From a virus, in IMG/VR virus record IMGVR_UViG_3300027797_000012, positions 66,554-130,553 of that record: a DNA stretch of 64,000 nt; one strand, 5' to 3'. The translations under genes were made by a program, and so were the position numbers. This document shows positions 10,926 through 57,065 of the stretch, in pieces. Within the stretch, counting starts at the first letter, position 1; every line of letters starts with the position of its first letter. The notes beneath the pieces were generated by a model. That model was not told where the DNA came from and ran no database searches. It worked only from the letters and a program-made list of their open reading frames with translations.

Positions 10926-10952
10926 AGCTCATAAGTAGACTTTGTTGACTAG

Positions 10953-10961
10953 TGATATAGT
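10953..10961 (+). promoter_or_regulatory. Extended -10 promoter (TGA-TATAGT)
   Basis: Intergenic, upstream of RBS aggag and ATG 10995. Confidence 0.5.
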
Positions 10962-10994
10962 TACCTTACGCACGTATCAAGTATTAGGAGAATC

Positions 10995-11267
10995 ATGTCT
11001 GAAGAAGTTACAGTTAAGAAGTACGCTATAGTTAACGCAGGAGTTGTTCTTTCAACCATTTACACAGAAGCAGGGTTTATGGAAATGCTCTCAGCCAACA
11101 CTGTGGTTGATATTACCAACGAGCCTTCTGTTGCGGATATCTCTGACGGTTACACATATGAAAACGGAGTTTTCTCTGCTCCTGTAGAGACTCCTGTAGA
11201 GACTCCTGTAGAGACTCCTGTAGAGACTCCTGTAGAGACTCCTGTAGAGACTCCTGTAGAGGGGTAA
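10995..11267 (+). CDS. Small fibre-associated protein with C-terminal (PVET)n tail
   Basis: RBS aggag; YAIV...GYTYENGVFSAP pattern seen in small tail-fibre-assembly-like proteins. Confidence 0.6.
   Translation: MSEEVTVKKYAIVNAGVVLSTIYTEAGFMEMLSANTVVDITNEPSVADISDGYTYENGVFSAPVETPVETPVETPVETPVETPVETPVEG
11181..11261 (+). repeat. Perfect 12-nt tandem repeat (cctgtagagact) x6 plus a partial unit
   Basis: Read directly; encodes PVET x6 + PVE. Confidence 0.95.
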
Positions 11268-11275
11268 ATTTTGTA

Positions 11276-11947: not shown

Positions 11948-11948
11948 T

Positions 11949-12863: not shown

Positions 12864-13383
12864 AATCTAATCTATTTACTCCATTTTTTACATAAAAAAC
12901 TTTTATCTTTTCTCTAAATGATGCGTAAGTATCTAGCATGTTGTAGTCATCAAAGCTTATAATGCCTTTAGATGAAAGCGCTTTAAGCGCGTTAGTGCCG
13001 TCTTCTACTACAGCCTCTTCACTATGGTCTCCGTCTATATAGATAAAATCAAAAGTATCAGCATTAGTGTTAAAAAAATCAGAGCTGTAGGAGTGTACTT
13101 TAACTACTTTACCTTTTTGAATATGCTCCTGCATTTGTAAGTTGTATTTTTCTTCTACTTCCTTTGAATCTATCCCCGCCACGTGAGGTAAAAAAGTCCA
13201 AGTATCTACATCTACAAGTCTAGACTCAGGGTGTGTAAGTATATTTTCCACCAACCACTTAGAGGCGTTTCCAGTAAACGCTCCTATTTGTAGGAAGTTC
13301 ACTGGCTTGTCTTTAAAATGACTTAAATGCTTTATAAATAGTTTATCTATTTCTAGACTATAAAACCAGTTAGGGTCTCTCAT
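12799..13383 (-). CDS. Class I SAM-dependent methyltransferase (Methyltransf_24-like)
   Basis: LQIGAFTGNAS...VDVDTW...FDFIYIDGDH...GIISFDDY. Confidence 0.85.
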   Translation of the reverse strand: MRDPNWFYSLEIDKLFIKHLSHFKDKPVNFLQIGAFTGNASKWLVENILTHPESRLVDVDTWTFLPHVAGIDSKEVEEKYNLQMQEHIQKGKVVKVHSYSSDFFNTNADTFDFIYIDGDHSEEAVVEDGTNALKALSSKGIISFDDYNMLDTYASFREKIKVFYVKNGVNRLDFTDFSVLEDKNCWQFWAQKNK

Positions 13384-13819
13384 TTTTTACCGATTCTAAA
13401 AACTCTTGCGATCCTGCAAAAAAGGCAACACCGTCTACACTCCACTTAATATTCATATTGTGTTTTTCAGAGTAATCTTTTGCCCAAGCAATAATCTCCT
13501 CAGATGCTGGCCTACCCGCTTCTGCAATCTGAAGATACTCAAAGCCGTTGTATGGTTGTCGAACAAAAATAACATCAGTTTTTGTAGGCGCTAGCCACTC
13601 ATCAAAGTGTGGGTTTCTTCGCCACTCACACTGGAAAAGAACACAAGGGTCGTACGGTCTAGTTTCATATTCTTTACATCCTACTCCTTGCTCGACAAAG
13701 ATGCAAGGCTTACCAGGGAACATCTCGCGGCCATGTATTGTGGCTGATAAGTATCCTTCGCAACATTTAGTGCACCCGTCGCACGATTTTTTATTAAGTA
13801 TCTCTATAAAACTAAGCAC
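13370..13819 (-). CDS. YkgJ-like CxxCxxCC cysteine-cluster protein
   Basis: CDGCTKCC...C.F...C..Y..RP..C..F.C.W. Confidence 0.75.
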   Translation of the reverse strand: MLSFIEILNKKSCDGCTKCCEGYLSATIHGREMFPGKPCIFVEQGVGCKEYETRPYDPCVLFQCEWRRNPHFDEWLAPTKTDVIFVRQPYNGFEYLQIAEAGRPASEEIIAWAKDYSEKHNMNIKWSVDGVAFFAGSQEFLESVKNERP

Positions 13820-13961
13820 TACGTCTAAATATTCTTTTTAGTAGGTTAATTATAAAGTTTTCTACCTTTGCCTCTAACAGTCCTTCTGCAGTTTCGTCCT
13901 TGTAGTGGTAAGTGTGATACCGTCTATTGCAGTAAGTATCGTGAAAATGTCGGCGACTCAT
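13812..13961 (-). CDS. Small hypothetical protein (49 aa), probably leaderless; not in the ORF track
   Basis: Manual translation MSRRHFHDTYCNRRYHTYHYKDETAEGLLEAKVENFIINLLKRIFRRSA; TATAAT 8 nt upstream; stop overlaps the start of the next gene. Confidence 0.45.
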   Translation of the reverse strand: MSRRHFHDTYCNRRYHTYHYKDETAEGLLEAKVENFIINLLKRIFRRSA

Positions 13962-14013
13962 GTTACTATATTATACCTATAACTGCACGTAATACGCTAA
14001 AGATAGGAAAATT

Positions 14014-14823
14014 ATGAAAAAGGTTCTTGTCACAGGTGGCTTGGGGTACATTGGGTGCGCCACAGACGTCGCGCTAAAAGCGCACGGCTACACACCTATC
14101 ATAACTGACAAGAAGATAGGCAGTTCTACAGAGAACATTCTTAAGATGCTTATAGTTTTTTTGCGCGACAGACCTGTAGGTGTTATCCATCTTTCAGCTA
14201 AGAAAAGTATAGGCGAATCTAAAAATCATCCTATTTCATACTACTGGAACAATGTGTCTTCGACTGTGTCCATAGCTATTCTGTGCAGACTTTTTAATCT
14301 ACCTATCGTCTTTGCTTCATCCGCCTCGGTGTACGAACCTACTAACCCTTACGCTAGAAGCAAGTTGTTAGAGGAACAGATACTTTGTAAGGTTAAATCG
14401 CACGTGATTCTGAGATACTTTAATATAGGAGGAAAAGCGCCTGGCGTTTCTGACACCGCAAAGCAGAATATATTTTCTATTCTTGACAACGTGCAAAGAG
14501 AAGGGTTGACATTTATAGTCAATAGCCCTAACTCAACGCGAGACTACACGCACGTTCTTGATATAGCAGAAGCTAACGTACGCGCGCTTGAGTATGCGCT
14601 GGCGGGAAACAAAAGCATTCTAACCGACGTATTTTCTGGAGCTCAGTACTCAGTGCTAGACGTGATAGAAGAGTATAGGAAGAACAATGTAATTATTGCG
14701 TATTCTACTAATAGCGCGGTAGATAAGACTATATACCCTAAACATAACAAGCTAGACTTGCTTCAGTGGGCGCCTACGCGTTCTTTTTTTGATATAGTTC
14801 GGTCAGAGATAGAGATAGATTAG
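14014..14823 (+). CDS. galE: NAD-dependent epimerase, UDP-glucose 4-epimerase-like
   Basis: VLVTGGLGYIG, HLSA.KSIGES, SSASVY, YxxxK (YARSK), LRYFN, RDYTHV.DIA.A. Confidence 0.8.
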   Translation: MKKVLVTGGLGYIGCATDVALKAHGYTPIITDKKIGSSTENILKMLIVFLRDRPVGVIHLSAKKSIGESKNHPISYYWNNVSSTVSIAILCRLFNLPIVFASSASVYEPTNPYARSKLLEEQILCKVKSHVILRYFNIGGKAPGVSDTAKQNIFSILDNVQREGLTFIVNSPNSTRDYTHVLDIAEANVRALEYALAGNKSILTDVFSGAQYSVLDVIEEYRKNNVIIAYSTNSAVDKTIYPKHNKLDLLQWAPTRSFFDIVRSEIEID

Positions 14824-14842
14824 CTGATTTTACAAAGAAAGA

Positions 14843-14857
14843 TGATAAGGTATAACC
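14843..14857 (+). promoter_or_regulatory. Extended -10 promoter for a leaderless transcript (TGA-TAAGGT-6 nt-ATG)
   Basis: -10-like hexamer 6 nt before ATG 14858; same geometry as the promoter of 17391. Confidence 0.5.
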
Positions 14858-16513
14858 ATGAAAGTTGCCGCTTACTCTATTGCCCTTAATGAAGAAAAAC
14901 ACGCCGCGCGCTGGGCCGAAACTACCAAAGGCGCCGACATCCGCGTTGTATGTGACACTGGATCCACAGATCGCACCGTTGAGATCCTGCGCGAGCATGG
15001 CGTCATCGTTTATGAAATTAACGTAAAGCCTTGGCGTTTTGACACCGCGCGAAATGCAGCGCTCGCGCTTATACCATCTGACATAGACGTATGCCTAAGC
15101 CTAGATCTTGATGAGACGTTAGATGAAGACTTCTTTGACAAGGTAAAAGAACACTGGGTGCCTGGCGCAACTCGTGGTTGGTGTGATTTTGACACGGGGC
15201 ACGTCTGGTCTATGTGCAGACTTCATTCACGCGATGGAATGTATTGGAAGTGGCCTATTCATGAAGTGTTTGTTCCTTCATTAGACACTAAGCTAGTTAA
15301 CTGCACGATACCTACAAAGATGTATCATAAGCCGGATAGCTCTAAGCCTCGTAGCCAGTACTTGCCTATGCTTGTTGCAGCATGCGCTGAAGAAGGAAAT
15401 GCAAAAGATCATCGTCTTGTTACGTATCTATGTAGAGAATACACGTATTATCGTGAGTGGGAACTTGTAATATCAACCGCAGAAAGACTTCTAGCGTTTA
15501 GTGATGACTGGGTAGTTGAACGTGCTGCTGTGTGTCGCTGGGCAGCAGAAGCTTGTCGCAACTTAAATCGTTTAGAAGAAGCTATGTCATGGGCGGATCG
15601 CGCTATCGAGCTAGATCCATGCGGAGAAAATTACTATGAAAAAGTTAACTGCTACTACGCCATGAGAGACTGGGGCGGAATGTGGGAAACTTCTAAGCTT
15701 GTAGCCACGTGCGCTCCAACAAATCATTATCTTTCTTCTGGGTCTCTATGGAAGTGGCAGCTCAACGACATGCGCGCCTTGTCAGCGCACAATCTTGGCG
15801 ATAAGAAAAAGGCAGTCCTATACGGGCAAATGGCGTTAGACGCTAATCCTACAGATCAACGCCTTGCAAATAACATCAAATTTTACGAGCAAGGCATTGA
15901 AAACTTAGAAGAAACTAGTATAGCTTCAGGACCAGCAACTTCAATATTTGAAAGTATATACAAGAATAGCCACTGGGGAAAAGGCAGTGGCCCTGGGTCA
16001 ACTGAGGAAGCTACATTAGAGTATCGAAAAATAGTGCAAGAGTGGGTTGACAAGAAAGAGATAAAAACAGTATTAGATCTCGGCTGCGGAGACTGGCAGT
16101 TCTCTAAGCTTCTTGACTTTTCAAGCGTGGACTATACAGGCGTCGACGTTGTGCCAGACGTTATCGCGCAAAACGATATGGCATACGGCAGTAACAACAT
16201 TAAGTTTGTCTTATCTGACGCGCTTAATTTTGACTTCCCTGAAGTAGATTTAATCCTATGTAAGGACGTTCTTCAGCATCTTCCAAATAATGACGTTGAC
16301 GTTATCGTAAAAAGAATACAGAAAGCGGCAAAGTACGCTTTGATATGTAATACGACATACACTCACGACAGTATTAACTACAATATTTCTCCAGGTGGCT
16401 ACCGTGGACTAGACTTAAAGCTCCCACCATTCTCAATGCAGGTTGAGACTGTGCTGCAGTGGGAAACTGCAGGGGCACCTAAAAGAATAGACCTAATAAC
16501 AAGAAAAGACTAA
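14858..16513 (+). CDS. GT2 glycosyltransferase-TPR-class I methyltransferase fusion
   Basis: IALNEE...DTGSTDRT...WRFD.ARN.AL...LDLDE...PIHE; helical TPR-like middle; C-terminal W..GSGPGS...VLDLGCGD...GVDVV...KDVLQHL. Confidence 0.85.
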   Translation: MKVAAYSIALNEEKHAARWAETTKGADIRVVCDTGSTDRTVEILREHGVIVYEINVKPWRFDTARNAALALIPSDIDVCLSLDLDETLDEDFFDKVKEHWVPGATRGWCDFDTGHVWSMCRLHSRDGMYWKWPIHEVFVPSLDTKLVNCTIPTKMYHKPDSSKPRSQYLPMLVAACAEEGNAKDHRLVTYLCREYTYYREWELVISTAERLLAFSDDWVVERAAVCRWAAEACRNLNRLEEAMSWADRAIELDPCGENYYEKVNCYYAMRDWGGMWETSKLVATCAPTNHYLSSGSLWKWQLNDMRALSAHNLGDKKKAVLYGQMALDANPTDQRLANNIKFYEQGIENLEETSIASGPATSIFESIYKNSHWGKGSGPGSTEEATLEYRKIVQEWVDKKEIKTVLDLGCGDWQFSKLLDFSSVDYTGVDVVPDVIAQNDMAYGSNNIKFVLSDALNFDFPEVDLILCKDVLQHLPNNDVDVIVKRIQKAAKYALICNTTYTHDSINYNISPGGYRGLDLKLPPFSMQVETVLQWETAGAPKRIDLITRKD

Positions 16514-17391
16514 AGAACGTCTGGGACGTTTATAGCGTTATACTTAGCTTCTCTAGTCTCCGGATCTGCTAATTCGTTGTACATCCACGTAGACGCGTCT
16601 GCGTTTTCAGTTAACGTAAGTACTCCGTATATCTTTCTATTGTCTAGGTACTGATCTACGTTGTTCTTTCTTGCTGACTCTGAGAATACCATGTATTCCC
16701 AGCGATCAGATTCTTCAAGGTAACTAAGAGTGCCAAGATGCTCTCGCTTAATTAAGTACGTGCAGTGCACGCAGTCAACCTTATGCGGCTTACGCTCTTT
16801 CTGATAAAGAATCTGATAGTAAACTGGTTCAGGTATTACCGATCCGTAGCTATCTACTATATAGTGGTAATTAGAATAGTAGCGTCCTTCATGTCCAGCA
16901 AGACGATCTTTTTGATCTTCGCTGTCTGGGTGCTCTGGTGTAGCTACCGCATACCTAAGCAGAGGCGCAACGATAGGGAGATCAAGCGCAACTAGTTCTT
17001 TAAGTGTTTCAGGGTATATAAAGTTATCAGCGTCAATAACAAAGTAGTAATCGCTACCGGCGCGTACAGCTTGACGCAGACTCTCTTGACGTATTTTACC
17101 GAGAACTCTAAATCGTTCTCCGTTCCATTCGTGCACTCCGTAATTTTCAACTTTAGTAGATACGTTTGAGCAGTCAAACAAGTAGTCTTGATACTTGTTA
17201 CCGTTGGCAGAAAGCCACTCACGAAGAATTTTTTCAGAGTTATCTGTATTGTTATTTGTTCTTACGTACAAAAATATCTTATCTTTAGGGTAGTCAAGCT
17301 CTTCTAAGGTTCTTAGAAACAGAGGAAGAACAGCTTCTTTTTGCTTAACAAGTATGGCTATAAATACCGTAGGAAGATCAATATCATTCAT
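16510..17391 (-). CDS. GT-A protein resembling the N-terminal domain of procollagen galactosyltransferase (COLGALT)/PLOD accessory domain
   Basis: PTVFIAIL.......LP.FL..LE.LDYPKDKI......N.DNS..ILREWL...RQ..L..A....DY.F.IDADN...TL..L......VAPLL...YSN...VH.TYLI. Confidence 0.7.
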   Translation of the reverse strand: MNDIDLPTVFIAILVKQKEAVLPLFLRTLEELDYPKDKIFLYVRTNNNTDNSEKILREWLSANGNKYQDYLFDCSNVSTKVENYGVHEWNGERFRVLGKIRQESLRQAVRAGSDYYFVIDADNFIYPETLKELVALDLPIVAPLLRYAVATPEHPDSEDQKDRLAGHEGRYYSNYHYIVDSYGSVIPEPVYYQILYQKERKPHKVDCVHCTYLIKREHLGTLSYLEESDRWEYMVFSESARKNNVDQYLDNRKIYGVLTLTENADASTWMYNELADPETREAKYNAINVPDVL

Positions 17392-18409: not shown

Positions 18410-18937
18410 CTACATATTGTTGTAGGTGCCTAGTTGAAGCACGCCGTTACTATCAGGCCATAGGTACTGATAGTACTCAGGACGATAACCTTTATCCTCT
18501 GGCCAGTTAAATTGAGAATACCAGTCGTACTCTTTGCGTAGTAAAGCAATGCGGTGGGTAGAGGCAATTTGCTCGTATGTATCTTTGTCTTTAAACCAGT
18601 AAGGAAAGGTAAGCTCGTCGCTGATACGCCCTAGCTCAAGCGCGCGGACTAGTGTTCCTTGAATCTTAGGAATCATTGTAGATTTGTAACCGCGAGCTAG
18701 CCACTCGTCACACATTGTAGTTGCGTACATAGACAAAGCTTTTTCGTGGCCTTCCCACATCTTTGCTGCAGGATGATTACGCCAGCCTTTAGGGTCACGG
18801 TGTTCGCCCTGTGGATTTAGCGAGGTAAGCACTAACATAAGTTGCCACGCCTCAAGGACCTGCTTATTAAGGCGCTTGTTGTCTAGTTCTTGAGCAATAT
18901 GCTCGAAGGAGCTAGTCTGAGGTAGAAAGGTTTGCAT
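18410..18937 (-). CDS. Pyrimidine-dimer DNA glycosylase (DenV/MSMEG_6728-like)
   Basis: MQTFLP...LD.KRL.KQ.LE..Q...GW.NHPA..MW.G.E...EW..RGY...SHR-like THR..LLRK...Y.WP. Confidence 0.85.
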   Translation of the reverse strand: MQTFLPQTSSFEHIAQELDNKRLNKQVLEAWQLMLVLTSLNPQGEHRDPKGWRNHPAAKMWEGHEKALSMYATTMCDEWLARGYKSTMIPKIQGTLVRALELGRISDELTFPYWFKDKDTYEQIASTHRIALLRKEYDWYSQFNWPEDKGYRPEYYQYLWPDSNGVLQLGTYNNM

Positions 18938-18972: not shown

Positions 18973-19284
18973 GGTAGGCGTGTCCTCTGGCGGTATTTCG
19001 TCAAAAGGAAGAACATTTTCTCCCTCCATGTCCATATCCATTTCTGAGTCAGCTTCTTCTATATCATCAGCTGAAACGTATATACCTACAACTGTAACCT
19101 TACTGCAGATAAAGCATTCGCAGACCGTGCCTGGAGAAAGTTTAATAGGTACATTTACGCTAACTAACCGCGTCAGAATGTTCCCTTCCATGTCTACGCT
19201 TTCTGGTTCCCACACGCTATTTTCCGCAATCCAACACCGCTCACAAAGTGGAACAAGATCATCGTTGTAATCGCGTATACTCAT
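18970..19284 (-). CDS. Hypothetical protein with two CxxC motifs
   Basis: CERC...CFIC, acidic tail; overlapping start/stop with the upstream gene. Confidence 0.6.
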   Translation of the reverse strand: MSIRDYNDDLVPLCERCWIAENSVWEPESVDMEGNILTRLVSVNVPIKLSPGTVCECFICSKVTVVGIYVSADDIEEADSEMDMDMEGENVLPFDEIPPEDTPT

Positions 19285-20546
19285 TTAGCGCTAGTCTCCA
19301 TAGGGCTACTGTACCACTGTTTCTTGGCGTAGTGTCTTGAGAATCCTTTGTCTGAGTCGATTAAGTACTCTCGGTCTCCGATTAGCTCCGCAGGTTCTCC
19401 TTGTGGGTTTCCGTCAAGTGCGTCTTTAAGTGCCTTACCAATCCAGTTGGCCGCTTGCACTGGGACAGCCTTGCCCCATACAGCCGCCAGGTGAGAGTAA
19501 TTGCGCGATTCTTCAATGTTCCAATCGTCAGGCAAACCTTGCATACGAGCAGACTCGCGATGCGTAATAAGGCGCGGTTGCGTCGGATGAATAACGTGGT
19601 CTAGCGCAGAGCCGGTAAGCACGTTGCACCAGTGATCTTCTTTCCAACGGTACGGTTGCGAAAAGCCAAGCTTAAAATTTTTACGAATAACACGAGGAGA
19701 AATGTCAATCCACTTCTGAGGAAACTTACCGTCATTTAAGTCTACGGCTTTCTTAAGCGCACCGCCGGTGTCACCGTTGCCTTCCCAGCCGTCGTTGCCG
19801 ATGATGCTAAAGATCTCTTCAATTCGTTGCGCATGGATGTTTGTTTTACCGATGTGACCGTCAACCATTCCATTTTTTGTGCGTAGGTGCTTAACCCACT
19901 TAGAAGGAGAAGGCGCGGTATACTTTTGCTTATTCCAAGTCTGAGGCATCTCCGCAAGATCACCGATGATGTCCATGATACGTGGAAGTTCTTTAGGTTC
20001 TGGAGTTACCGCGCTAAACTTAAGTCCTGACTCAACAGCAACCCAGAAGTAACGCGGGCGATATGAAAATCCGCCAACCTGTAGGTTATTTTCCTTAACG
20101 TGATACAAATCGTATTTTTTACCGGAGACTTGCTCGACCATGTCGCGATACTTAACCATTACGTCGCGCCCTTGCGTGTACGCTTGCTGAACACACTCGA
20201 ACACTATAGCGCGTGGTTTTACGCGTCCAGCGTATTTCATAAAGGCTACGGTATGCTCGTGTGCCTTAGAGTCAGGTCCACGATTTGCAGGGCCAGACCA
20301 TACAGACCAACCGGAGCATGGCGGGCAACCCATGACGATGTCTGCTTTTTGCACGCGCCATTCGTTAGGATCGTCTGAAAACTCTGAGGTCCAGTCATCT
20401 CCAAGAAGATGACGGTTGCTTTCTGCAACTACGTTTCCAAAGTTTAATGTTCCGGTGCGTTGAATCATCTTCATGTCGTTTTGGATAAAGCCAAGACTCA
20501 TAAAAGCTGCAAGCCCGTTGCAGTCGATAAAGGTATGTTGTGACAA
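19281..20546 (-). CDS. DNA cytosine-C5 methyltransferase-fold enzyme with atypical cofactor motifs
   Basis: Motif IV GCPPCSG, VI FECV, VIII YRPRYF, IX RE.ARMQGLPD, X WGKAVP; motif I degenerate (DCNGLAAFMSLGF). Confidence 0.85.
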   Translation of the reverse strand: MSQHTFIDCNGLAAFMSLGFIQNDMKMIQRTGTLNFGNVVAESNRHLLGDDWTSEFSDDPNEWRVQKADIVMGCPPCSGWSVWSGPANRGPDSKAHEHTVAFMKYAGRVKPRAIVFECVQQAYTQGRDVMVKYRDMVEQVSGKKYDLYHVKENNLQVGGFSYRPRYFWVAVESGLKFSAVTPEPKELPRIMDIIGDLAEMPQTWNKQKYTAPSPSKWVKHLRTKNGMVDGHIGKTNIHAQRIEEIFSIIGNDGWEGNGDTGGALKKAVDLNDGKFPQKWIDISPRVIRKNFKLGFSQPYRWKEDHWCNVLTGSALDHVIHPTQPRLITHRESARMQGLPDDWNIEESRNYSHLAAVWGKAVPVQAANWIGKALKDALDGNPQGEPAELIGDREYLIDSDKGFSRHYAKKQWYSSPMETSAK

Positions 20547-20609: not shown

Positions 20610-20933
20610 TTACTCAGAAAGATTTGCTTTTTTCTCTAGATCAATCATGCCTACCTCATAGCCGCAACCTGCGTATCCCGCGATATCAATCCAGGTATCT
20701 CCCTGGAACCCAGATTTAGACGCGTATCGAGCGACTTTAAGACCTACCATCATCATGGCAACGTCTTCTTGTGATAAGTCTATACCTAGTATGACTGACC
20801 AGATCTTGCCTATTCTAGCAAAGTTTTCTTCAGGAGCGCCGTACTGCGCATCTCTATCTCCAGAGATAATTTTAGCAGCTTCGCGTAGAGCTTCTACTCG
20901 GTACTGCAGAGGCTCATTTGATGAATCAGCCAT
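20610..20933 (-). CDS. DUF6378-like all-alpha protein (nucleotide-metabolism associated)
   Basis: EA..II.GDR...YG.P..NF.RI...WS...DVA.MM..LK.AR...D.W.DIAGYA. Confidence 0.75.
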   Translation of the reverse strand: MADSSNEPLQYRVEALREAAKIISGDRDAQYGAPEENFARIGKIWSVILGIDLSQEDVAMMMVGLKVARYASKSGFQGDTWIDIAGYAGCGYEVGMIDLEKKANLSE

Positions 20934-21144: not shown

Positions 21145-21563
21145 TAGCGAACTCTCTTCTCTAGTTGGTGCGGTGAATAGTGTGCCCCGTCTAAGATAGG
21201 TTCTTTATCATCTGTAGACTTAAATATAATGTCGCCGTAACGGATTCCTACAACCTTACCGCGTCTCCCGTTGTGAATACCGCCGGTTGCGCCGTCGTAC
21301 GCGTCAGCCTTGACACGCACGTCGTCACCTAGACTAATTGCGCCTGGTTGCGCATCAACCCATAGCTCATCAGGATTATTTTTTACTGCGGCATGCCCAA
21401 GAGAAAGACGGCTAAATAGCGCTATAACTTCCTTTTGCTGGTTTACTGATAGGGTAATATCTTTCCAAGTTGCAAGAAGTTTAAGTGTAGCATTACCGAT
21501 ACCTACTTTAGTCTTTGCATCTTGCATTTCAGATCTGACCCATTCATCGTTGACTTCAGGCAC
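21144..21563 (-). CDS. Hypothetical protein with C-terminal SH3/KOW-like barrel
   Basis: GDDVRV...HNGRRGKVVGIRYGDIIF; RBS aggagg. Confidence 0.6.
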   Translation of the reverse strand: MPEVNDEWVRSEMQDAKTKVGIGNATLKLLATWKDITLSVNQQKEVIALFSRLSLGHAAVKNNPDELWVDAQPGAISLGDDVRVKADAYDGATGGIHNGRRGKVVGIRYGDIIFKSTDDKEPILDGAHYSPHQLEKRVR

Positions 21564-22041
21564 TGTAGTCTACCTCCTTAGGTAAGCACTTTGCGCACAT
21601 GTCTGGGCTAGCGCCTCTACCAACGTCGTCGATAGCTCTAGTGCACAATGCACATTTTACGCCTTCTTCTTTAACTTTGTACCCTTTTAGCTGTCTTTCT
21701 TTATTGCGCTCCATTTTTTCAAGATAGAACTTGTCAAGCATTTCGTCAGTTCCGCCAGCTGCAACAATGATATTAGCCACAAAGTGTAGAACATCAACAG
21801 CTTCTTTGATTACTTCTTCTCTATCAGCGTAAGGTTGGTCGTGTTGCCAAGGCTTCCACGAGATTGCTTGGCGCATCTCTGCAAGTTCATCGTCTACCGC
21901 AAGCATGTTCCAGCGCAGGTACTCAACGAACCGACGTATATTCTGAGGCTTATCGCCTTCCATATCTTCGTAGTTAATAAAGTACACGTCTTTTTGTAGA
22001 TCTTTTGTTCTTTTTAGCCATGAATTAAACAGAATAGTCAT
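21556..22041 (-). CDS. All-alpha dNTP pyrophosphatase, T4 gp56 dCTPase/dimeric dUTPase type
   Basis: E..E.....WKPW...E.VD.LHF.......G......Y..K...N..RQ..GY; short C-terminal CxxC...CxxC. Confidence 0.8.
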   Translation of the reverse strand: MTILFNSWLKRTKDLQKDVYFINYEDMEGDKPQNIRRFVEYLRWNMLAVDDELAEMRQAISWKPWQHDQPYADREEVIKEAVDVLHFVANIIVAAGGTDEMLDKFYLEKMERNKERQLKGYKVKEEGVKCALCTRAIDDVGRGASPDMCAKCLPKEVDYSA

Positions 22042-22044
22042 ATA

Positions 22045-23064
22045 CTAACCTTTCTTAGAATATAGTTTAAGTGCACTTGACAGCGCGATTGCTGCATCGG
22101 TGCGAGTTGGTATTGCGTTTACATAGTCCTTACGTTGTTCTTTAGCAAGTGCGTTTCTTTCTTCTTGAGACATATCTTCTATCTTTGAAGCTAGATGCGC
22201 CCATGAACTGCCAATAGCGCTACTCTCTCGCCAATCTGTAGCTACAGGGGTTAACGTATTTATACATTGTATAAGTCTGTATGACCACCACGTGCCGTTT
22301 AGGTGCGGATTGAACAAGGCTCCTACGCCGGCAGCAATTTGATTTTCTACCTGCATGTCTGTCCAACCTTTATGCCACTTCATAGGAACCGTAGGTCTTT
22401 GTAAAGTAGCAGTTGTTGATTTTACCCACGATGATGAATAGTTTTCAACTACCCACTTTTCACGGCGTTCTAGCTCGATAACATCTTGATTGTTTATAAG
22501 ATAGGAATCTAAACTTATAGGAATTAGTGAAGCAGCAGCGCCTTTCGGCAGTTGAGCAGCCACCTTACTTACGTCCTGCCACGGAAGGGAAGGATAGAGC
22601 GTTGTTGGCCATTCTTTAGTAAGTAGGTGCTCTACTACGTCTAATAAGTTTTGAAGCATGTTTGGCTGCGACGCTGTGTCATATCCTTTTCTATACGAAT
22701 AGAAAGGTTTAGTTAAGTTATCCGGTGTCTTTACTATTGCACGAAGGCTAGACGTAATCCGGTTTGGCTCCGGCGCGTCTAAGAAAAGAACTAGCTTATC
22801 GGTGTCAAGCAATACGTCTATAACGCTTAATGCGCCATAGACTCTGTTTGCGCTTAAGCTTGTCAAAGGGCTTAGCCCAACTAAAACGGAGTCGTACTCA
22901 TTTAAGTCTTTAGTGTTCCATGAGACTTCAGGATCTAGTTGCACTACGTCATGTCCTTGAAGAACTAGCACAGTCCTTATTACACTTGCAAACGACGCAG
23001 ATCTGGCATTTGCAGTTTCGGATGCGTGCGAAGCTGACATACCAGTTATAAGAATTTTGCTCAT
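22045..23064 (-). CDS. Putative GT-B (beta-glucosyltransferase-like) DNA glycosyltransferase, paralogue B
   Basis: KILITG...L...GHDV...YD.VLV...FLD...WWSYR; colinear with the upstream paralogue; sits beside the dCTPase-like gene. Confidence 0.5.
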   Translation of the reverse strand: MSKILITGMSASHASETANARSASFASVIRTVLVLQGHDVVQLDPEVSWNTKDLNEYDSVLVGLSPLTSLSANRVYGALSVIDVLLDTDKLVLFLDAPEPNRITSSLRAIVKTPDNLTKPFYSYRKGYDTASQPNMLQNLLDVVEHLLTKEWPTTLYPSLPWQDVSKVAAQLPKGAAASLIPISLDSYLINNQDVIELERREKWVVENYSSSWVKSTTATLQRPTVPMKWHKGWTDMQVENQIAAGVGALFNPHLNGTWWSYRLIQCINTLTPVATDWRESSAIGSSWAHLASKIEDMSQEERNALAKEQRKDYVNAIPTRTDAAIALSSALKLYSKKG

Positions 23065-24278
23065 GCTGGCGTCCCGTCAGCGTTACGCTTAACGCCTTTG
23101 TCCTCTGCAACAGCGCGCTCGATGATGCGATTGCAATGTTCTACAAACGCGGAGTACTCCGGGATATATGGAGCAAGTGCGGCGCGTTGAGCCATAGCCG
23201 CTTCATGTAGCTCTGTATCAGACATTTTCTCGACATCTGTAATCTTTAACTTATACGCATCGCCAAGTGGATCCCCTTCACCCTTATCGGTGACAAGTAT
23301 AGAACCCACATGCGCTGCGTATAGGAAGCGGCTGCGCCACCAGCCAGAGCCCGCGTGCGGATACGGCGGAGAAAGAATACCCCAGTGATGATTATAGAAT
23401 TCAATAACGTCTTGTTCAGTGTCAAAGCGTTGTCCGCCAAGTTTTTTAATAAGCTTACGACTTCCAACAATTTCAACCGGCCAGTCTGGATTTTTCTTTT
23501 CTAACCAAGTATCATGTGGCATAAGAGCTCCAAGCACCCATGCACGCTTCTTGCTTGTCGGTGGCAGAGGAGTAACTGGTTGCAACGTTGGGACAATAGT
23601 TGCCGTAGGGTCTAGAGCTTCGATAGGGCCAACTTCATCAGGCATACGCTTACGTACACTAGATCTATCTCCGAAAGCGTACATAGGGCACACTGGAACC
23701 ATACCAGCAGCCCATCTATCAGCAAGTAAGTCGCGAGCAGCTTCAACTAAACGCTTCTCGTAAGGCTTAATGTTTTCGTCGTTGTCCATCATATAGTAGC
23801 GTTCGATGTAGCACTTTTTTGCCGCCGCAGGATTTAATTCTTTAACTCGCTCGAGCGCTGCCTCGATGTCTGCGCGACTAAAATAAGTTGCGCCTTCTTC
23901 ACCGCGATGCTCAGTTCCTACAAGCAGATGCTTATACAACATCTCCGGTTTACGAATAAGCGCACGTGCACCGTTAAACACTGTGTTAAACTGCCAATCA
24001 TCAAAAAATCCTACACAAGGAATACCAGATGACAGTGCGTATAGCGCGCCCATCGCACCTTGACGACCATTCAACGAGTTAAGTGGTGCAAGATTTATCC
24101 ACAGTACATCATAACTAGAAAGATCTTCGCCTGGAGTAATTTTACGCCAGTCAACATCATGTCCAGCTTCGCGCAGTGCTTTAGCGACAGACGCAGGTAC
24201 GTCAATCTTTTGTATTGTGCGTTTTTCTGTGTTGATCTGCAACGCAGTGAAACCACTCATCAATACCTTCATGTCCAC
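23061..24278 (-). CDS. Putative GT-B (beta-glucosyltransferase-like) DNA glycosyltransferase, paralogue A
   Basis: MKVLMSG...ALREAGHDV...YDVLWI...FFDDW...GILSPPY...GWWRSRFLYA...GSILV, a GT-B-like pattern. Confidence 0.55.
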   Translation of the reverse strand: MDMKVLMSGFTALQINTEKRTIQKIDVPASVAKALREAGHDVDWRKITPGEDLSSYDVLWINLAPLNSLNGRQGAMGALYALSSGIPCVGFFDDWQFNTVFNGARALIRKPEMLYKHLLVGTEHRGEEGATYFSRADIEAALERVKELNPAAAKKCYIERYYMMDNDENIKPYEKRLVEAARDLLADRWAAGMVPVCPMYAFGDRSSVRKRMPDEVGPIEALDPTATIVPTLQPVTPLPPTSKKRAWVLGALMPHDTWLEKKNPDWPVEIVGSRKLIKKLGGQRFDTEQDVIEFYNHHWGILSPPYPHAGSGWWRSRFLYAAHVGSILVTDKGEGDPLGDAYKLKITDVEKMSDTELHEAAMAQRAALAPYIPEYSAFVEHCNRIIERAVAEDKGVKRNADGTPA

Positions 24279-28988: not shown

Positions 28989-30820
28989 CGATACTTTTCT
29001 CCCCAGTTCTCCATAGGTCCGTCAATTCCAGATGTCAAAGGTACAGCCCAGCCTTCGGTTGTAGTCATGCACTGCTTTACAATTTTCATAATCTCCTGCG
29101 CGTCCTCGCGCGGAGCATTGAGTACAATTTCATCGTGCACTGGGACGATAAGCAGTTCAGTTAATTCTGCCTGATCTAGCTTTATTAAGTTAGACTTAAA
29201 TACCTCGGCAGCTCCACCTTGAATTAAATAGTTAACAAGTGTGTATACTCGATCTTCATCGCAAGGCAAGCGTCTGCCAGTCCATGTGTAGACGTAGCCT
29301 TGGCCTTCTGCTTTAAGTCTACGCATACCGGCGTCTTCAATTTGTTTTTGAAAGAGTGACATACCAGGGAAGCGCATGTCGAACGCGTCTGAAACAGTTC
29401 TCATCTGACCTTCTGCTACACCAGCTGTAAGTGCTTGTTTTGCGACGCCTGCGCCGTAGAGACGGCCGTAGACAGTTCCTTTGATGAGATTACGACGCTT
29501 GTCCGACCGTTGCATCGTAGGGTCGTTGTAAATTTCACGACCAATTTCAGTGAACGGATCTGACCCTGTTGCATCTGCACGGTTAAATAGCGTGATGAGG
29601 TTTGGGTCTTGTGAGAGGGATGCGAACATTCTAAATTCGACCTGGTCAAGGTCTGATGTGATAATGACATGATCTTCATCCTTTGGAATAAACGCAGTAC
29701 GGACTGTATCGTCACCCTTAGGCAAAGTCTGTAGTGCTGGGTTCTGAATTGACATACGACTTGTTCGTGCGCCAAGTGTTTTTACAGATGGGTGGACAAA
29801 ACCATTCACATTGTCATTGATAAAGTTTGCAAAGTACGTGTTAGCGAGCTTGTCTGCCTTGCGCTGTTTGAGCACGATCTCGGCAAGTTCTTTTACCTCA
29901 GAGTTACCCGCAATAGCTAAGAATTGCAATTGGTCCTTAGATGCGGATTTTTGTCCTGAAGGCGTATACTCGTTAATCTCTGCGCCAAGTGACTCTAGCA
30001 AGCGCACTAGTTGAATGTTACTAGTTATAGAAACGCCAGCGTACTTTTGCTGCGCCCACGACTTGACTTGCTCCGTGTACGAAGTAAGCTCGTCAAACTT
30101 CTTTCTAGAGTAGTCTAGGTCAATTCGTGCGCCGTTGAGCTCCATACGTGTAACAATGCGGCGAGTCTGCATTTCAAGTTCGTACGCTTTATGGTACGGC
30201 TGTCCTGGACCACACTTCTCGTAAAACTGTTCCCATAAGCGCATAGTTAAGATGCAGTCTAGCGCACCGTATGACCAGTAAGGTTGAAAATTAGTAGGAA
30301 CAGTTCCCCATGTCCAACCGTTCTTAACAAGCTCTTCATCAAGTGTACCCTGCAGTGCAACCGCACGGCCGTCAACGTGTAGAGCAGCAAGACGCTTAAG
30401 CGCACCGGTGCCAAGTGGATCTATGATGTGCGCCATAATCATTGTGTCGTGCACTCTGTGCCAAGGTATTTTCCAACGCGACTGTATGTCAAACCATCGA
30501 GCTTCAAAAGCTACGTTGTGACAAACGATAGGTCCATCAAACTTATCCATAGCCTCATAGAAAACTCCGGCCCATTCATCCCACGGCATAGCCCAGGACT
30601 GTTTACCATCGCCAACTTGAACTAAACGTAGTCTGCCGTGCCATGGAGAAAGTGCATGGTCACGTGGATTGCCTGGAAGTTCTCCAGTTTCAGTGTCAAT
30701 TGCAATCGCGTTGTGAGGTCGTCGTTCACCTAGCCAAGTTATAAACTGACCTGCTTTTTCTACGCTGTCAATTAAGTGAAGCTGAACTCCTTCTAAGTTA
30801 TCAACCATTAGCTTCCTCAA
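28985..30820 (-). CDS. polA: DNA polymerase family A with 3'-5' exonuclease domain
   Basis: Exo DTET, HN..F, Y...D; TSRMS..NP.LQ; motif A DLDQVEFR; motif B R...K...YG..YG; motif C VHDE. Confidence 0.95.
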   Translation of the reverse strand: MRKLMVDNLEGVQLHLIDSVEKAGQFITWLGERRPHNAIAIDTETGELPGNPRDHALSPWHGRLRLVQVGDGKQSWAMPWDEWAGVFYEAMDKFDGPIVCHNVAFEARWFDIQSRWKIPWHRVHDTMIMAHIIDPLGTGALKRLAALHVDGRAVALQGTLDEELVKNGWTWGTVPTNFQPYWSYGALDCILTMRLWEQFYEKCGPGQPYHKAYELEMQTRRIVTRMELNGARIDLDYSRKKFDELTSYTEQVKSWAQQKYAGVSITSNIQLVRLLESLGAEINEYTPSGQKSASKDQLQFLAIAGNSEVKELAEIVLKQRKADKLANTYFANFINDNVNGFVHPSVKTLGARTSRMSIQNPALQTLPKGDDTVRTAFIPKDEDHVIITSDLDQVEFRMFASLSQDPNLITLFNRADATGSDPFTEIGREIYNDPTMQRSDKRRNLIKGTVYGRLYGAGVAKQALTAGVAEGQMRTVSDAFDMRFPGMSLFQKQIEDAGMRRLKAEGQGYVYTWTGRRLPCDEDRVYTLVNYLIQGGAAEVFKSNLIKLDQAELTELLIVPVHDEIVLNAPREDAQEIMKIVKQCMTTTEGWAVPLTSGIDGPMENWGEKYR

Positions 30821-31280
30821 ATATTGTCATTTCAATGTTGCACTTAATAAAGTACTCCATAACTTTTTCTGGCTGCCTGTGCTCTGCCTTTGATTGTATA
30901 CGCATAACTACTCTAGATACACCAGAATTGGATACTAACTTTGCGCATTGCATACACGCAGCGTCTGTTATGTATATGGTTCCGCCTTCAGTGCGCGATC
31001 TATCGACGTACAGTAGCGCGTTTGCCTCCGCATGTATGGACGGGCATGCGTCATACATATTGTCTAATGGGGCAGTGCCTTGTGCACGTGGGCACCAGTT
31101 AACACATTCGCCTTCATTTGGAAAAGAAGCAGCTGGCCCGTTGTAACCTGTAGAACTAACACGTTGATCTTTAGAAACTACAACCGCGCCAATTTGAGCG
31201 CGGCTACAACGAGAACGTAAGGCTACAGTGTCTGCAACCTGCATCCAGACTTCATCCCACGAAGGACGAGTGTTTGTCAT
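30801..31280 (-). CDS. dCMP deaminase
   Basis: RPSWDE...RSRC.R..IGAV...TGYNG...HAEANA...C..C. Confidence 0.9.
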   Translation of the reverse strand: MTNTRPSWDEVWMQVADTVALRSRCSRAQIGAVVVSKDQRVSSTGYNGPAASFPNEGECVNWCPRAQGTAPLDNMYDACPSIHAEANALLYVDRSRTEGGTIYITDAACMQCAKLVSNSGVSRVVMRIQSKAEHRQPEKVMEYFIKCNIEMTIFEEANG

Positions 31281-31462
31281 TCTGATAAGTCTCCCATGCC
31301 TTCTGTGACTGACGCGGCAAGTACTTTTGCAACTAACGAAAGAGCTTCCTTACGAGAAAAGCCTGCGCGCTTTAGCTCTTCAAACATCTCATGAAGCTGG
31401 ATTACCGCATCTCTTAGAGGGCTATCATCTTCTTCGTACTTCTTCATATCGTCATTACCCAT
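31277..31462 (-). CDS. Small hypothetical protein
   Basis: LHEMF..L..AGFSR.EAL helical motif; coupled to both neighbours. Confidence 0.6.
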   Translation of the reverse strand: MGNDDMKKYEEDDSPLRDAVIQLHEMFEELKRAGFSRKEALSLVAKVLAASVTEGMGDLSE

Positions 31463-32324
31463 TTGTCTTTTCCTCGTTCTTTTTTACTGCCTTAATCATA
31501 GCGTTTGCGTACCATTGCTCAAAAGGGTGAAGACCGTACAAAAGCATCTGCTCTTCGTGATGTATGGCAGCGGTTAACGCGTCCATGGCAAAATCTGAAA
31601 CTTGTTCCCATGTATTACCTACCATCGCGGGGATCGTTTCGTATGGTTCATACGTATGCTTTAGATTTTCAGCAGAGTCATAATGCTGCTCGTAGATGTG
31701 CAAAGACCCGACATGATGATGGTACGTGCCTGGCTCAATTCCTAAGATAGACGCTATAGCAAGTTGAACACGCGTAAACTGGAAAAAGTCATACGCCGCT
31801 CCTAGCCATACATCGTTTGAGCGCATGTACACGCTCATGTTAAGTTTGTTGTTGCGAATTCTAAATTGATGCAGGATAGTGCACGGGTAGTCTCGCTTAT
31901 TTGCAAGAAGATCTAGCTCCGGATTCCAAATAGTAACGACCGCCTGTCGTGTATCTGGGTCTGCCTTAAGTCTTTCAACTACAGGAGCGTACTGCGATTG
32001 CGTGCGAACTCCGTATGCCCCGTGAAATAATCCATTGTCCTCGGTGTAGTTAGTAAACTGTGGGCCGATAGCAATAACAAGTTTAGGTGTGCTTGCGCCT
32101 GCGATAAGCTGGCAAGCTTCAACCGCACCGATACCTGCAACAGTCCCGCGTCCTACACCCAACGGTAAGGTGTTATAAACATCATCAATACGAATAATTG
32201 CGTCCTCGATCTCGCGTGTTTTCATACCGCGAGGAGCGACCTCCTTGCCGTGCTTAAGAACATGCTGAACAAGATCAACGTATCCGTTAACTCCGTCAGG
32301 AATATTTATTATCGCAGTATCCAT
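31455..32324 (-). CDS. Thymidylate-synthase homologue, predicted dCMP hydroxymethylase/methylase
   Basis: GAYG.R, D.DTRQAV..IW, catalytic PC, MRSND.WLG..YD (Asp at the specificity position), GSLHIY. Confidence 0.8.
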   Translation of the reverse strand: MDTAIINIPDGVNGYVDLVQHVLKHGKEVAPRGMKTREIEDAIIRIDDVYNTLPLGVGRGTVAGIGAVEACQLIAGASTPKLVIAIGPQFTNYTEDNGLFHGAYGVRTQSQYAPVVERLKADPDTRQAVVTIWNPELDLLANKRDYPCTILHQFRIRNNKLNMSVYMRSNDVWLGAAYDFFQFTRVQLAIASILGIEPGTYHHHVGSLHIYEQHYDSAENLKHTYEPYETIPAMVGNTWEQVSDFAMDALTAAIHHEEQMLLYGLHPFEQWYANAMIKAVKKNEEKTNG

Positions 32325-33325
32325 TTGTCTCCCCTGTCTTTTCCGTGCGCTAGTCTTGTTATTGCCTTACCGTACTCTTCTTTTTGTGAGTTAAAAAATC
32401 GTTTAACGTGCTGCGGGTGTGAGGTTACGGTGTATAGATAGTCAGGGATATTTGCATGGCGTATTCCACGTTCTGCGAGACGCCCTAAAGCTAAAACCGG
32501 TGGACGGCGTAACGTACACCATAGATCCTCAAAACGCTCTGAAGACATATCGTTTACGTTAACGATACCCATAGATTTCCAGCTGTCTGACTGAAGTGCG
32601 GTAAGCAGAAACTCACCTGAGTTGCCATCAACAGGCATGAAAGGTAGAATAGTTTCCTCGCCATATTTCTTAGTAATATTTCGTCTGTCACCTACAAGTA
32701 AAACTCGAGGGAAGCGCGAGCCGATGTACTCCGGGAACTTAGCAAGTTCCTGCGTGTCATCTTGTATTGAATCAGCCCTGTTAATGATATGCGAAGCAAG
32801 ATGACCTATAGTGTCTAGTGAGTCAGCCGCAGGAGTTAGGCGTCCTGCAAGTCCTGCGGAGTTTGCCGCCGCGACTTCATATAACCCTAAGATCTGTTCA
32901 AGCTCGTGCGCTTGTATGTAATCGTCACCGCGAGCATTTAGACGACGAGTAATAACATCAAGAGGTTGATACAACCAAAATTGAGCAACACCACGTGATT
33001 TAAGGAAGAGCTCTGTCCATCGCCAACCTGCTCTACCGAGGAGACCATATCCGTCACCTGTACCCGTCTCAGGGCGTTTTACCGCGGCGTAAGTTACCTC
33101 GCCCCAGTGCCAACGGTCTGCTACGGCTATGCGCTTTGACCAGTCGATATTCTCAATAGACGTAACATAATCCTGCAGGACCCAGCGGCGCGTCATCTCT
33201 TCGGGCTTAGACTTATGGTAAAACTCGATTTCTTTTTTAGGGAACTTTTCAGCAAGTTGTTTTTGCACTTCAGACACAAGGGTAGACTTGCCTGAGGCGT
33301 CTGTACCTTCAATTACTATAAACAT
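32309..33325 (-). CDS. dNMP (thymidylate-like) kinase fused to a uracil-DNA-glycosylase-superfamily domain
   Basis: IEGTDASGKST, DRW...E..Y, RL..RGD; C-terminal VLLVGD...PF....SG.FL...N...P.VLALG..A...HPQ...RF. Confidence 0.75.
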   Translation of the reverse strand: MFIVIEGTDASGKSTLVSEVQKQLAEKFPKKEIEFYHKSKPEEMTRRWVLQDYVTSIENIDWSKRIAVADRWHWGEVTYAAVKRPETGTGDGYGLLGRAGWRWTELFLKSRGVAQFWLYQPLDVITRRLNARGDDYIQAHELEQILGLYEVAAANSAGLAGRLTPAADSLDTIGHLASHIINRADSIQDDTQELAKFPEYIGSRFPRVLLVGDRRNITKKYGEETILPFMPVDGNSGEFLLTALQSDSWKSMGIVNVNDMSSERFEDLWCTLRRPPVLALGRLAERGIRHANIPDYLYTVTSHPQHVKRFFNSQKEEYGKAITRLAHGKDRGDKWILR

Positions 33326-57064: not shown

Positions 57065-57065
57065 G

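Follow-up and report, generated by a model that had tools for sequence, protein, structure and literature searches.

A lysine-type branch of C5-methyltransferase-fold proteins, found in phages with 5-hydroxymethyl-dCMP synthase-type genes and predicted to carry out a non-methyl reaction on DNA

The stretch of DNA analysed here (the window) spans 64,000 nucleotides, positions 66,554 to 130,553 of the IMG/VR virus record IMGVR_UViG_3300027797_000012, and makes up the latter half of a 130,553-bp record rated complete. On its minus strand lies a gene for a protein of 421 amino acids (aa) with the fold of the DNA cytosine C5-methyltransferases, in which lysine stands at the place of the motif X asparagine; it is called the Lys-type enzyme below. 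The gene and the motifs of its product are as follows, all coordinates being those of the window.

19281..20546, minus strand: gene of the Lys-type C5-methyltransferase-fold enzyme, 421 aa, TTG start (assigned by PF00145, an AlphaFold2 model and Foldseek)
20499..20525, minus strand: motif I-like DCNGLAAFM, residues 8-16; Asn10, Leu12, Ala14 and Phe15 replace the Phe and the Gly-rich loop for S-adenosylmethionine (SAM)
20436..20462, minus strand: motif II-like QRTGTLNFG, residues 29-37; Gly32 at the position of the M.HaeIII Glu
20304..20330, minus strand: motif IV GCPPCSGWS, residues 73-81; catalytic Cys77, and Ser78 at the M.HaeIII Gln
20247..20282, minus strand: motif V-like RGPDSKAHEHTV, residues 89-100; His96-Glu97-His98 at the M.HaeIII G-K-L
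20190..20201, minus strand: motif VI FECV, residues 116-119; Glu117 retained, and Cys118 at the Asn of ENV
20046..20060, minus strand: motif VIII RPRYF, with Arg163 and Arg165 (RPR = residues 163-165)
19596..20030, minus strand: target-recognition region, residues 173-317, aligning best with DNMT1/MET1
19461..19475, minus strand: motif X GKAVP, residues 358-362; Lys359 encoded by AAG at 19470-19472

The protein matched the Pfam family of C-5 cytosine DNA methylases (PF00145) with an E-value of 8.8e-21 and a score of 75.1 bits against a cut-off of 22. The alignment pairs residues 65-374 with profile positions 58-323, and since the match begins only at profile position 58, the part of the profile holding motifs I-III (positions 1-57) is left unmatched. 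PHROGs gave phrog_116, 'DNA methyltransferase' (E 1.8e-31), and the Atlas look-up returned generic 'DNA methylase' clusters only. An AlphaFold2 model, built from a 53-sequence alignment, had a mean predicted local distance difference test score (pLDDT) of 94.7 and a predicted template modelling score of 0.93. With this model Foldseek retrieved the catalytic domains of DNMT1, MET1 and ZMET2 (best E 1.0e-19), and also the methylase 3G7U of prophage CP-933R, M.HaeIII and M.HhaI. The class I methyltransferase fold, the target-recognition domain and the PF00145 match are all present in the 421-aa protein, and with the canonical enzymes (M.HaeIII, 1DCT/3UBT; M.HhaI; 3G7U; DNMT1/MET1) it has the fold, the motif order, motif IX and the target-recognition domain in common. 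The target-recognition region is nearer to the eukaryotic DNMT1/MET1 than to the bacterial methylases, in sequence (E about 1e-9 to 1e-23) as well as in fold.

The initial annotation, made from the letters of the window, had read the catalytic Cys, the motif VI Glu (in ECV) and the motif VIII RxR as kept, the FxGxG of motif I as lost, QRTGTLNF (residues 29-36) as devoid of an acidic motif II residue, and the lysine encoded at 19470-19472 as the equivalent of the motif X Asn; the alignments bear this out. In phmmer comparisons with PDB chains, PPCSGWS fell on PPCQSWS (PPCSG being residues 75-79, with the Cys77 codon TGC at 20316-20318), FECV on AENV or LENV, RPRYFWV on RKRVFYI, and GKAVP on the GNAVP of M.HaeIII and DNMT1. 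Cys77, Glu117 and Arg163/165 are aligned in this way with both of the latter enzymes, and no alignment separating the lysine from the motif X Asn was seen. A family profile aligned with M.HaeIII also covers the N-terminus, where DCNGLAAFM (its residues 8-15 being DCNGLAAF) stands opposite ISLFSGAGGL, with Asn10 at the motif I Phe and Leu12, Ala14 and Phe15 at the Gly-rich loop. Further along the same alignment, Gly32 is opposite the motif II Glu, and His96-Glu97-His98 is opposite the motif V G-x-L. The Pro-Cys of motif IV, the Glu of motif VI and the Arg-x-Arg of motif VIII are present; the SAM-binding F-x-G-x-G of motif I, an acidic residue in motif II, the Gly-Asn of motif X (GKAVP instead) and the Glu-Asn-Val of motif VI (FECV instead) are absent.

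Compared with canonical C5-methyltransferases, the Lys-type proteins have PCS for PCQ, ECV (ESV in the family at large) for ENV, and GK for GN. By sequence equivalence, the replacements among the three side chains around the C5 substituent are Ser78 for Gln, Cys118 for Asn (the family at large having Ser) and Lys359 for Asn. In M.HhaI these positions line the transferred group. They do so as well in M.MpeI (PMC12015181) and in CmoX (PMC12783734).

Conservation of these features was examined at two levels. Searched with HMMER, 1.84 billion representatives yielded 905 matches at E ≤ 0.001, 137 of them at E ≤ 1e-30, and the 124 sequences of at least 340 aa among the best 150 of the 905 matches were used as the family alignment. 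The motif X residue in these 124 representatives is Lys in 118, Arg in 3, Ser in 1, Gln in 1 and a gap in 1, and the position of the ENV Asn is occupied by Ser in 116 and by Cys in 5. The nucleophilic Cys is kept in 119, Glu117 in 123, Arg163 in 121 and Arg165 in all 124. Among the open reading frames (ORFs) for the enzyme in the loci retrieved, Lys359, Cys77, Ser78, Glu117, Arg163 and Arg165 are each found in 62/62. The motif X lysine is a family trait and not a mutation. The wider family has a motif I of the form D-[CV]-Q-G-F-A-G-G-F, and N-x-C-M in place of the canonical G-x-L-F of motif V.

The query subfamily, comprising 121 sequences with at least 60% identity (110 of which include the N-terminus), departs further. 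Gly32, His96, His98, Cys74 and Arg30 are invariant in it, Lys359 is invariant or nearly so, and Asn10, Leu12 and Phe15 are likewise invariant or nearly so (108 of the 110 sequences with the N-terminus); Cys118 occurs in 107/121, and the motif III Asp is not conserved. Because the replacing residues are invariant or nearly so in 121 close homologues, the changes in the pocket are not decay. Judged from the two alignments, the donor pocket was apparently rebuilt in two stages and then came under strong constraint. The subfamily is also set apart by a Cys-Pro-Pro-Cys around the nucleophile (with the invariant Cys74), by His96-Glu-His98 and by Cys118, the wider family having Asn74, Asn96, Cys98 and Ser118 at these places; the Cys and His residues could form a metal site or a redox pair.

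The Lys-type branch is large and almost purely viral. IMG/VR holds 337 relatives. Among named records, Actinomycetia phage DSL-LC01 comes closest, with 65% identity; next are thirteen Gordonia phage records at about 35% and Micrococcus phage Kurnik at 33%. In a one-genome-per-species scan of 185,579 bacterial and archaeal species, run with the main family patterns and not with the motif IV of the query subfamily, one relative appeared. This sole cellular relative lies at 8001-9209 of a 17.6-kb contig (L190) of a metagenome-assembled genome of Coriobacteriia. Phage records and metagenome source names label the Lys-type proteins 'methyltransferase', and the paper on Gordonia phage GMA2 describes orf51 as a putative methylase and nothing more. 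The literature consulted had nothing specific on the Lys-type family or on a methylase homologue linked to 5-hydroxymethylcytosine (5hmC).

Besides being almost absent from cellular genomes, the Lys-type family differs from the canonical C5-methyltransferases in being tied to genes of the 5-hydroxymethyl-dCMP synthase type (dCMP, deoxycytidine monophosphate). In the window this gene is the following.

31455..32324, minus strand: thymidylate-synthase (TS) homologue with a 5-hydroxymethyl-dCMP synthase signature (Asp at L143 and at N177, Asp169)

It is the only TS-family gene in its own genome, where no ThyX was found, and its best PDB match is the CMP 5-hydroxymethylase MilA (E 7.9e-24). In the criteria of PMC13326640, Asp at the ThyA position N177 selects dCMP, hydroxymethylation is associated with an acidic residue at L143, and Asn at D169 is the mark of newly found 5-hydroxy-dCMP synthases. 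The window homologue has the features of the 5-hydroxymethyl-dCMP synthases. A single TS-family gene is present in each of the phages DSL-LC01, GMA2, Kurnik and Phendrix (4/4). The same gene family was sought in 50 distant IMG/VR records, drawn from 61 distant loci in which the enzyme is 30-44% identical to P0244, a 919-aa relative described below. It was present in 38/50, and in 17/17 of those that are at least 90% complete, which brings the complete or near-complete phage records with a TS homologue to 22/22 (5/5 and 17/17). In all 35 TS homologues compared (from the window, the four phages and 30 of the 38 distant loci), Asp at L143 and N177, the catalytic Cys146 and Asp169 are present. In every complete genome examined, the enzyme therefore co-occurs with a nucleotide-level route to 5hmC.

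Two other routes to a modified cytosine were considered and rejected. A route through 5-hydroxycytosine (PMC13326640) does not agree with the retention of Asp169 in 35/35 TS homologues, and for a route through 5-methylcytosine (5mC) and subsequent TET oxidation, no TET/JBP gene (PF12851) was found in the 5 records searched. A distant methylase-like protein of Cyanophage S-TIM5 (L191, 2619-3455 and 5839-7056), with LPPC, ENA and Q-N in motif X, is also encoded near a TS homologue; the latter has Asp at N177 and, by eye, an apparently non-acidic L143, so that the S-TIM5 pair may represent a different cytosine modification route.

These findings bear directly on whether the protein could be an ordinary SAM-dependent C5-methyltransferase with odd motifs, methylating either the cytosines left over in the phage DNA or the host DNA. 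Membership in PF00145, intact catalytic residues and the public annotations as methyltransferase all speak for it, as do the members of the wider family with a motif I Gly-Gly and with the motif II Glu (78/124). We nevertheless consider it unlikely. The query subfamily has other residues at the motif I Phe and Gly loop, at the motif II Glu, at the motif III Asp and at the motif V Leu. Cellular genomes, in which ordinary C5 methylases are plentiful, have almost no members of the family, which is confined to phages with a 5-hydroxymethyl-dCMP synthase-type gene; in the DNA of such phages little free C5 would be available. Moreover, M.MpeI with the corresponding N374K exchange methylates poorly (28%; PMC12015181).

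That exchange is an engineered case of a motif X lysine, as is M.MedI N377K, and the initial annotation also named E. coli Dcm N436K. In M.MpeI N374K the lysine forms a salt bridge with the carboxylate of carboxy-SAM, the motif II Glu45 being crucial for carboxy-SAM binding (PMC12015181). A natural DNA cytosine C5-carboxymethyltransferase has been described as well: CmoX of Synechococcus phage S-B43 (PDB 8YF3), which has Arg350 at the motif X Asn, in touch with the carboxymethyl group, together with an SPPC motif (PMC12783734). The adenine and ribose contacts of SpCmoX are intact (Phe25, Glu47, Phe48 and Asp69), and CmoX contigs mostly carry CmoA, with 4257 CmoA for 5615 CmoX (PMC12783734). 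The screen behind these figures demanded Arg and SPPC (PMC12783734) and would therefore have missed the Lys-type family.

Against this background the Lys-type enzyme might be thought a natural maker of 5-carboxymethylcytosine dependent on carboxy-SAM, that is, a lysine version of CmoX or a counterpart of M.MpeI N374K. The position of its lysine is that of M.MpeI N374K and M.MedI N377K (PMC12015181), and Arg, the CmoX residue at the same site (PMC12783734), occurs in 3/124 representatives. The remaining comparisons point the other way. CmoA (TIGR00740) was found in neither the phage's own genome (0/1), nor the four cultured relatives (0/4), nor the 50 distant IMG/VR records (0/50), the control being E. 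coli CmoA, which scored above the cut-off, and not a phage CmoA; CmoX contigs mostly carry the gene (PMC12783734). The ribose-binding Glu (E45 in M.MpeI, PMC12015181; Glu47 in CmoX, PMC12783734) corresponds to Gly32. The motif X residue of the 421-aa protein is Lys359 and not Arg, SPPC is replaced by GCPPC (GNPPC in the family), and the cofactor contacts of CmoX, namely the motif I Phe, the motif II Glu and the motif III Asp, are absent or unconserved, their equivalence being established through M.HaeIII and not through 8YF3. The family profile matched 8YF3 (E 2.8e-14) more weakly than M.HaeIII (E 6.6e-25) or M.HhaI. Finally, C5 is probably occupied beforehand by a hydroxymethyl group. An enzyme of this kind is thus extremely unlikely, and carboxy-SAM was rejected as the principal explanation on account of CmoA in 0/55 phage records and of Gly32 at the motif II Glu.

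As no CmoA was found, Gly32 takes the place of the motif II Glu and the match to 8YF3 is weaker, the basic motif X residue is, on the sequence comparisons, one that arose independently of CmoX. The methylase-like protein of Cyanophage S-TIM5, with Q-N in motif X, is not a CmoX. The analogy with carboxy-SAM enzymes in the initial annotation is not supported: no CmoA was found in 55 phage records, the crucial Glu is Gly32, and the protein is no closer to CmoX than to M.HaeIII. Of the two co-occurrences that the annotation had suggested for the homologues, the one with 5-hydroxymethyl-dCMP synthase-type genes was recovered (22/22 complete or near-complete records) and the one with CmoA was not (0/55).

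Further indications of function came from ten long relatives of the enzyme, which were scanned for additional domains. The 919-aa protein P0244 is a fusion of the enzyme with the helical domain of a 5-hydroxymethyldeoxyuridine (5-hmdU) DNA kinase (PF18723, E 5e-40; 1/10). Fusions to class I methyltransferases account for 7/10, three with Methyltransf_23 and four with the FkbM family, and of the remaining relatives, one has an intein and one no recognisable extra domain. None of the ten had a match to CmoA in NCBIfam at E ≤ 0.01. The intein-bearing relative is the 752-aa protein P0236, into which an intein bearing a LAGLIDADG domain is inserted (Hint_2, LAGLIDADG_3, Intein_splicing). A separate HMUDK_hel gene is present in 2/50 distant records, in both of which genes for a metallophosphoesterase and a sugar epimerase and a Methyltransf_23 gene come after the enzyme gene; no HMUDK_hel was found in the window or in the four cultured relatives. 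A viral-contig scan queried with P0244 alone returned no relative.

The gene neighbourhood was compared by clustering the ORFs of 66 loci, in 62 of which the enzyme is present. Apart from the TS homologue, the window genes of interest are these.

20610..20933, minus strand: DUF6378 protein directly upstream of the enzyme gene (E 5.2e-29); cluster in 9/66 loci
21556..22041, minus strand: dUTPase_2/MazG-like NTP pyrophosphatase, candidate dCTPase (PF08761, E 8.7e-11)
22045..23064, minus strand: glycosyltransferase of the GT-B fold, candidate DNA glycosyltransferase (model pLDDT 88.4)
23061..24278, minus strand: diverged paralogue of the GT-B gene (same cluster; 20% identity in alignment A3)
30801..31280, minus strand: dCMP deaminase (PF00383, E 3e-18)
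32309..33325, minus strand: P-loop kinase-like protein, candidate dNMP kinase (weak dTMP kinase match; phrog_761 thymidylate kinase, E 2e-12)

The MazG/dUTPase-like gene is the most constant neighbour, found in 43/66 loci at a median distance of 1063 bp upstream of the enzyme gene; a complex prediction for the enzyme and this neighbour gave a score of 0.00, which speaks neither for nor against binding. The product of 22045..23064 had its top TM-scores (0.57-0.58) with T4 beta-glucosyltransferase and its best E-values with SenB, at an identity of 11-12%. Across the loci, variable tailoring genes lie between the MazG-like gene and the replication genes; their counterparts in the window are 22045..23064 and 23061..24278. 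The enzyme gene usually comes immediately downstream of the MazG-like gene, and glycosyltransferase genes also precede it. A 449-aa protein with a glycosyltransferase lead in the Atlas occurs in 34 of the 66 loci, a STELLO/RGP-like glycosyltransferase in 21, a GT1 enzyme in 14, a sugar epimerase in 12 and a nucleotidyltransferase in 10. A metallophosphoesterase adjoins the enzyme gene in 6 of the 66. In five loci (L094, L096, L104, L109 and L127) a calcineurin-like metallophosphoesterase of 390-440 aa directly follows the enzyme gene, and in L104 and L109 it precedes an epimerase and a Methyltransf_23 gene, with an HMUDK_hel gene on the same contig. Two complete small phages, G034 and G041 (32.6 and 36.4 kb), encode a dCMP deaminase, the MazG-like protein, a kinase, a TS homologue and the enzyme, and no glycosyltransferase was recognised in the annotated parts of either. 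PHROGs gave no match for most neighbours.

Other genes of the window were noted in passing. Two genes downstream of the enzyme gene, at 18410-18937, is a gene of the pyrimidine-dimer DNA glycosylase family (PF03013, E 1.8e-19), which is likewise downstream in DSL-LC01 and whose cluster occurs in 5/66 loci. In DSL-LC01 (L001, 11428-11940 and 7944-9041), an extra 170-aa class I SAM methyltransferase is encoded directly upstream of the enzyme gene, and the cassette includes a UDP-galactopyranose mutase; neither of these extra genes is found at the corresponding places in the window. A low-GC island at 7666-17391 (GC content 0.37 at 8-14 kb) contains a GlcNAc-transferase (PF11397), two DUF6065 genes, a 2OG-Fe(II) oxygenase, a GT25 gene, class I methyltransferases, an epimerase, a GT2-TPR-methyltransferase fusion and an Anp1/GT2-like gene, and looks like a protein or glycan tailoring cluster apart from the DNA genes. 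Two very long ORFs are present at 52379-57130 (minus strand, 1583 aa) and at 57670-63999 (minus strand, at least 2109 aa), the latter extending past the edge of the window.

Among the other roles considered is that of a SAM-independent DNA cytosine hydroxymethylase, which would use formaldehyde or methylene-tetrahydrofolate to patch cytosines left unmodified after replication. C5 methylases are able to add formaldehyde to cytosine; the intact catalytic apparatus with its rebuilt pocket would be in line with this, and the conserved Trp, Arg, His and Asn (N44-R-H, W52, W63) could accommodate an anionic ligand or a pterin. We regard this role as quite unlikely, since a nucleotide-level route and a candidate dCTPase exist in these phages already. 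A patching enzyme should also occur in phages that lack a TS homologue, yet 22/22 complete or near-complete records have one, and the kinase fusion suits action on 5hmC better than its synthesis.

The exclusive presence of the gene in phages with a 5-hydroxymethyl-dCMP synthase-type gene would also be explained by an enzyme directed against the host, which would attack unmodified host cytosines by Lys359-promoted deamination or as a trapped covalent complex, the phage DNA being shielded by its 5hmC. C5 methylases deprived of SAM deaminate cytosine, and here the SAM site is lost and the nucleophile kept; the downstream gene of the pyrimidine-dimer glycosylase/AP (apurinic/apyrimidinic) lyase family in the window and DSL-LC01 (5/66 loci) would be consistent with such a role. 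That relatives are fused to the domain of a hydroxymethyl-pyrimidine DNA kinase or to class I methyltransferases, and that the gene lies inside glycosylation cassettes, indicates instead the tailoring of phage DNA, and the chance that the enzyme acts against the host appears small.

The same fusions and cassettes could be accommodated by a non-catalytic or base-flipping adaptor, which would hand 5hmC to glycosyltransferases, a kinase or O-methyltransferases, as the fusion partners are enzymes that would act on the C5 substituent or its sugar and the protein is constantly found beside tailoring genes. T4 beta-glucosyltransferase, for its part, flips its own base unaided. The presence of Cys77, Glu117 and Arg163/165 in 62/62 ORFs and in 119 to 124 of the 124 representatives argues for chemistry, no partner was recognised in the annotated parts of the small complete phages G034 and G041, and an adaptor is very unlikely.

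The enzyme is, rather, predicted to carry out a reaction other than methylation on DNA, and probably does so. The specific chemistry proposed here is a weaker claim than this general one of a non-methyl enzyme in the 5hmC pathway, and is put forward tentatively, with somewhat less than an even chance of being right: a C6-covalent reaction on 5hmC or a derivative of it in phage DNA, whose product would be neither 5mC nor 5-carboxymethylcytosine. The phage would exchange cytosine for 5hmC, making 5hmC or its derivative in DNA the substrate, and since C5 is already occupied in such DNA, neither a methyl nor a carboxymethyl group can be added there. The retained machinery (Cys77, Glu117, Arg163/Arg165 and the target-recognition domain) is that expected for flipping a cytosine and attacking its C6. 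The enzyme would flip out the 5hmC or derivative, and Cys77 would add to C6. Lys359, at the position of the SAM methyl group, would then either protonate the exocyclic oxygen or bind an anionic leaving group such as a phosphate. A non-SAM co-substrate held in the new pocket would trap the 5-methylene intermediate so formed. This pocket would consist of Asn44-Arg-His, Trp52, Trp63 and residues 96-99, and the substituent would find room because Ser78 and Ser/Cys118 are smaller. A further-modified cytosine, distinct from 5-methylcytosine and 5-carboxymethylcytosine, would be released as the product. SAM-free C5 methylases are known to swap the hydroxyl of 5hmC for thiols or to strip the group. 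Of the alternatives in the initial annotation, a non-SAM donor or action on 5hmC and not ordinary methylation, the context and the rebuilt pocket support the whole and favour the 5hmC branch; its carboxy-SAM analogy finds no such support.

Several observations weigh against this mechanism. Dependence on 5hmC would be equally expected if the target were unmodified host cytosine, and DNA targeting by itself could account for the fusion partners. Lys359, His96 and His98 are placed near C5 by sequence equivalence to M.HhaI/M.MpeI and not by coordinates. Because the wider family still has part of the SAM site, with the motif I Gly-Gly in most members, the motif II Glu in 78/124 and a motif III Asp or Glu in 51/124, some of its members may still bind SAM or a nucleoside cofactor. 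The presence of 5hmC in the phage DNA is deduced from the genes, 12/50 distant records, all of them fragments, are without a TS gene, and the cases of co-occurrence are not independent, one replication module being common to most loci and several records being near-duplicates. A second architecture is represented by small 32-36 kb phages with a primase-polymerase.

Among described systems, CmoX is one of the closest: it too is a phage-encoded C5-methyltransferase homologue with a basic residue for the motif X Asn, and it constitutes an entry point to DNA hypermodification (PMC12783734). It differs in having Arg350, SPPC and CmoA (PMC12783734), where the Lys-type enzyme has Lys, GCPPC, no adenine or ribose contacts and no CmoA in 55 records. 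With M.MpeI N374K and M.MedI N377K (PMC12015181) the enzyme shares the position of the Asn-to-Lys change, but it is a natural protein without the full SAM site. The window resembles the 5hmC pathway of T4 in carrying genes for a hydroxymethylase-type TS, a dUTPase_2/MazG-like protein, a kinase-like protein, a dCMP deaminase and GT-B proteins, and departs from it in that a partner of the C5-methyltransferase fold is a constant extra component. To our knowledge, T-even phages have no such partner. The route through 5-hmdU DNA kinase and a pyrophosphorylase activates a 5-hydroxymethyl group on DNA and then substitutes it, acting on hydroxymethyluracil and with an unrelated transferase. The likeness to that route (PF18723) lies in the one relative fused to the kinase helical domain and in the 2/50 records that carry such a gene, and the difference in that this phage has no such kinase.

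It is possible, though less probable than the mechanism itself, that the Lys-type proteins are the first natural family to derivatise 5hmC in DNA by a Cys-C6 mechanism with a non-SAM co-substrate, and that they produce an undescribed hypermodification, spread widely among the actinobacterial phages of lakes, soil and sludge. If this is true, the C5-methyltransferase fold would have a third job after methyl and carboxymethyl transfer, namely the tailoring of a base that already bears a C5 substituent, and cytosine hypermodification would gain a new step and probably a new base. The carrier phages are abundant, as seen from the 337 IMG/VR relatives, and include cultivable Gordonia and Micrococcus phages. 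As far as we know, 5hmC has so far been rewritten only by forcing ordinary methylases to act without SAM; sequence-directed enzymes that rewrite 5hmC would, if the proposal is correct, be useful for 5hmC mapping and DNA labelling. Overall, the annotation 'methyltransferase' probably misstates the function of the Lys-type family.

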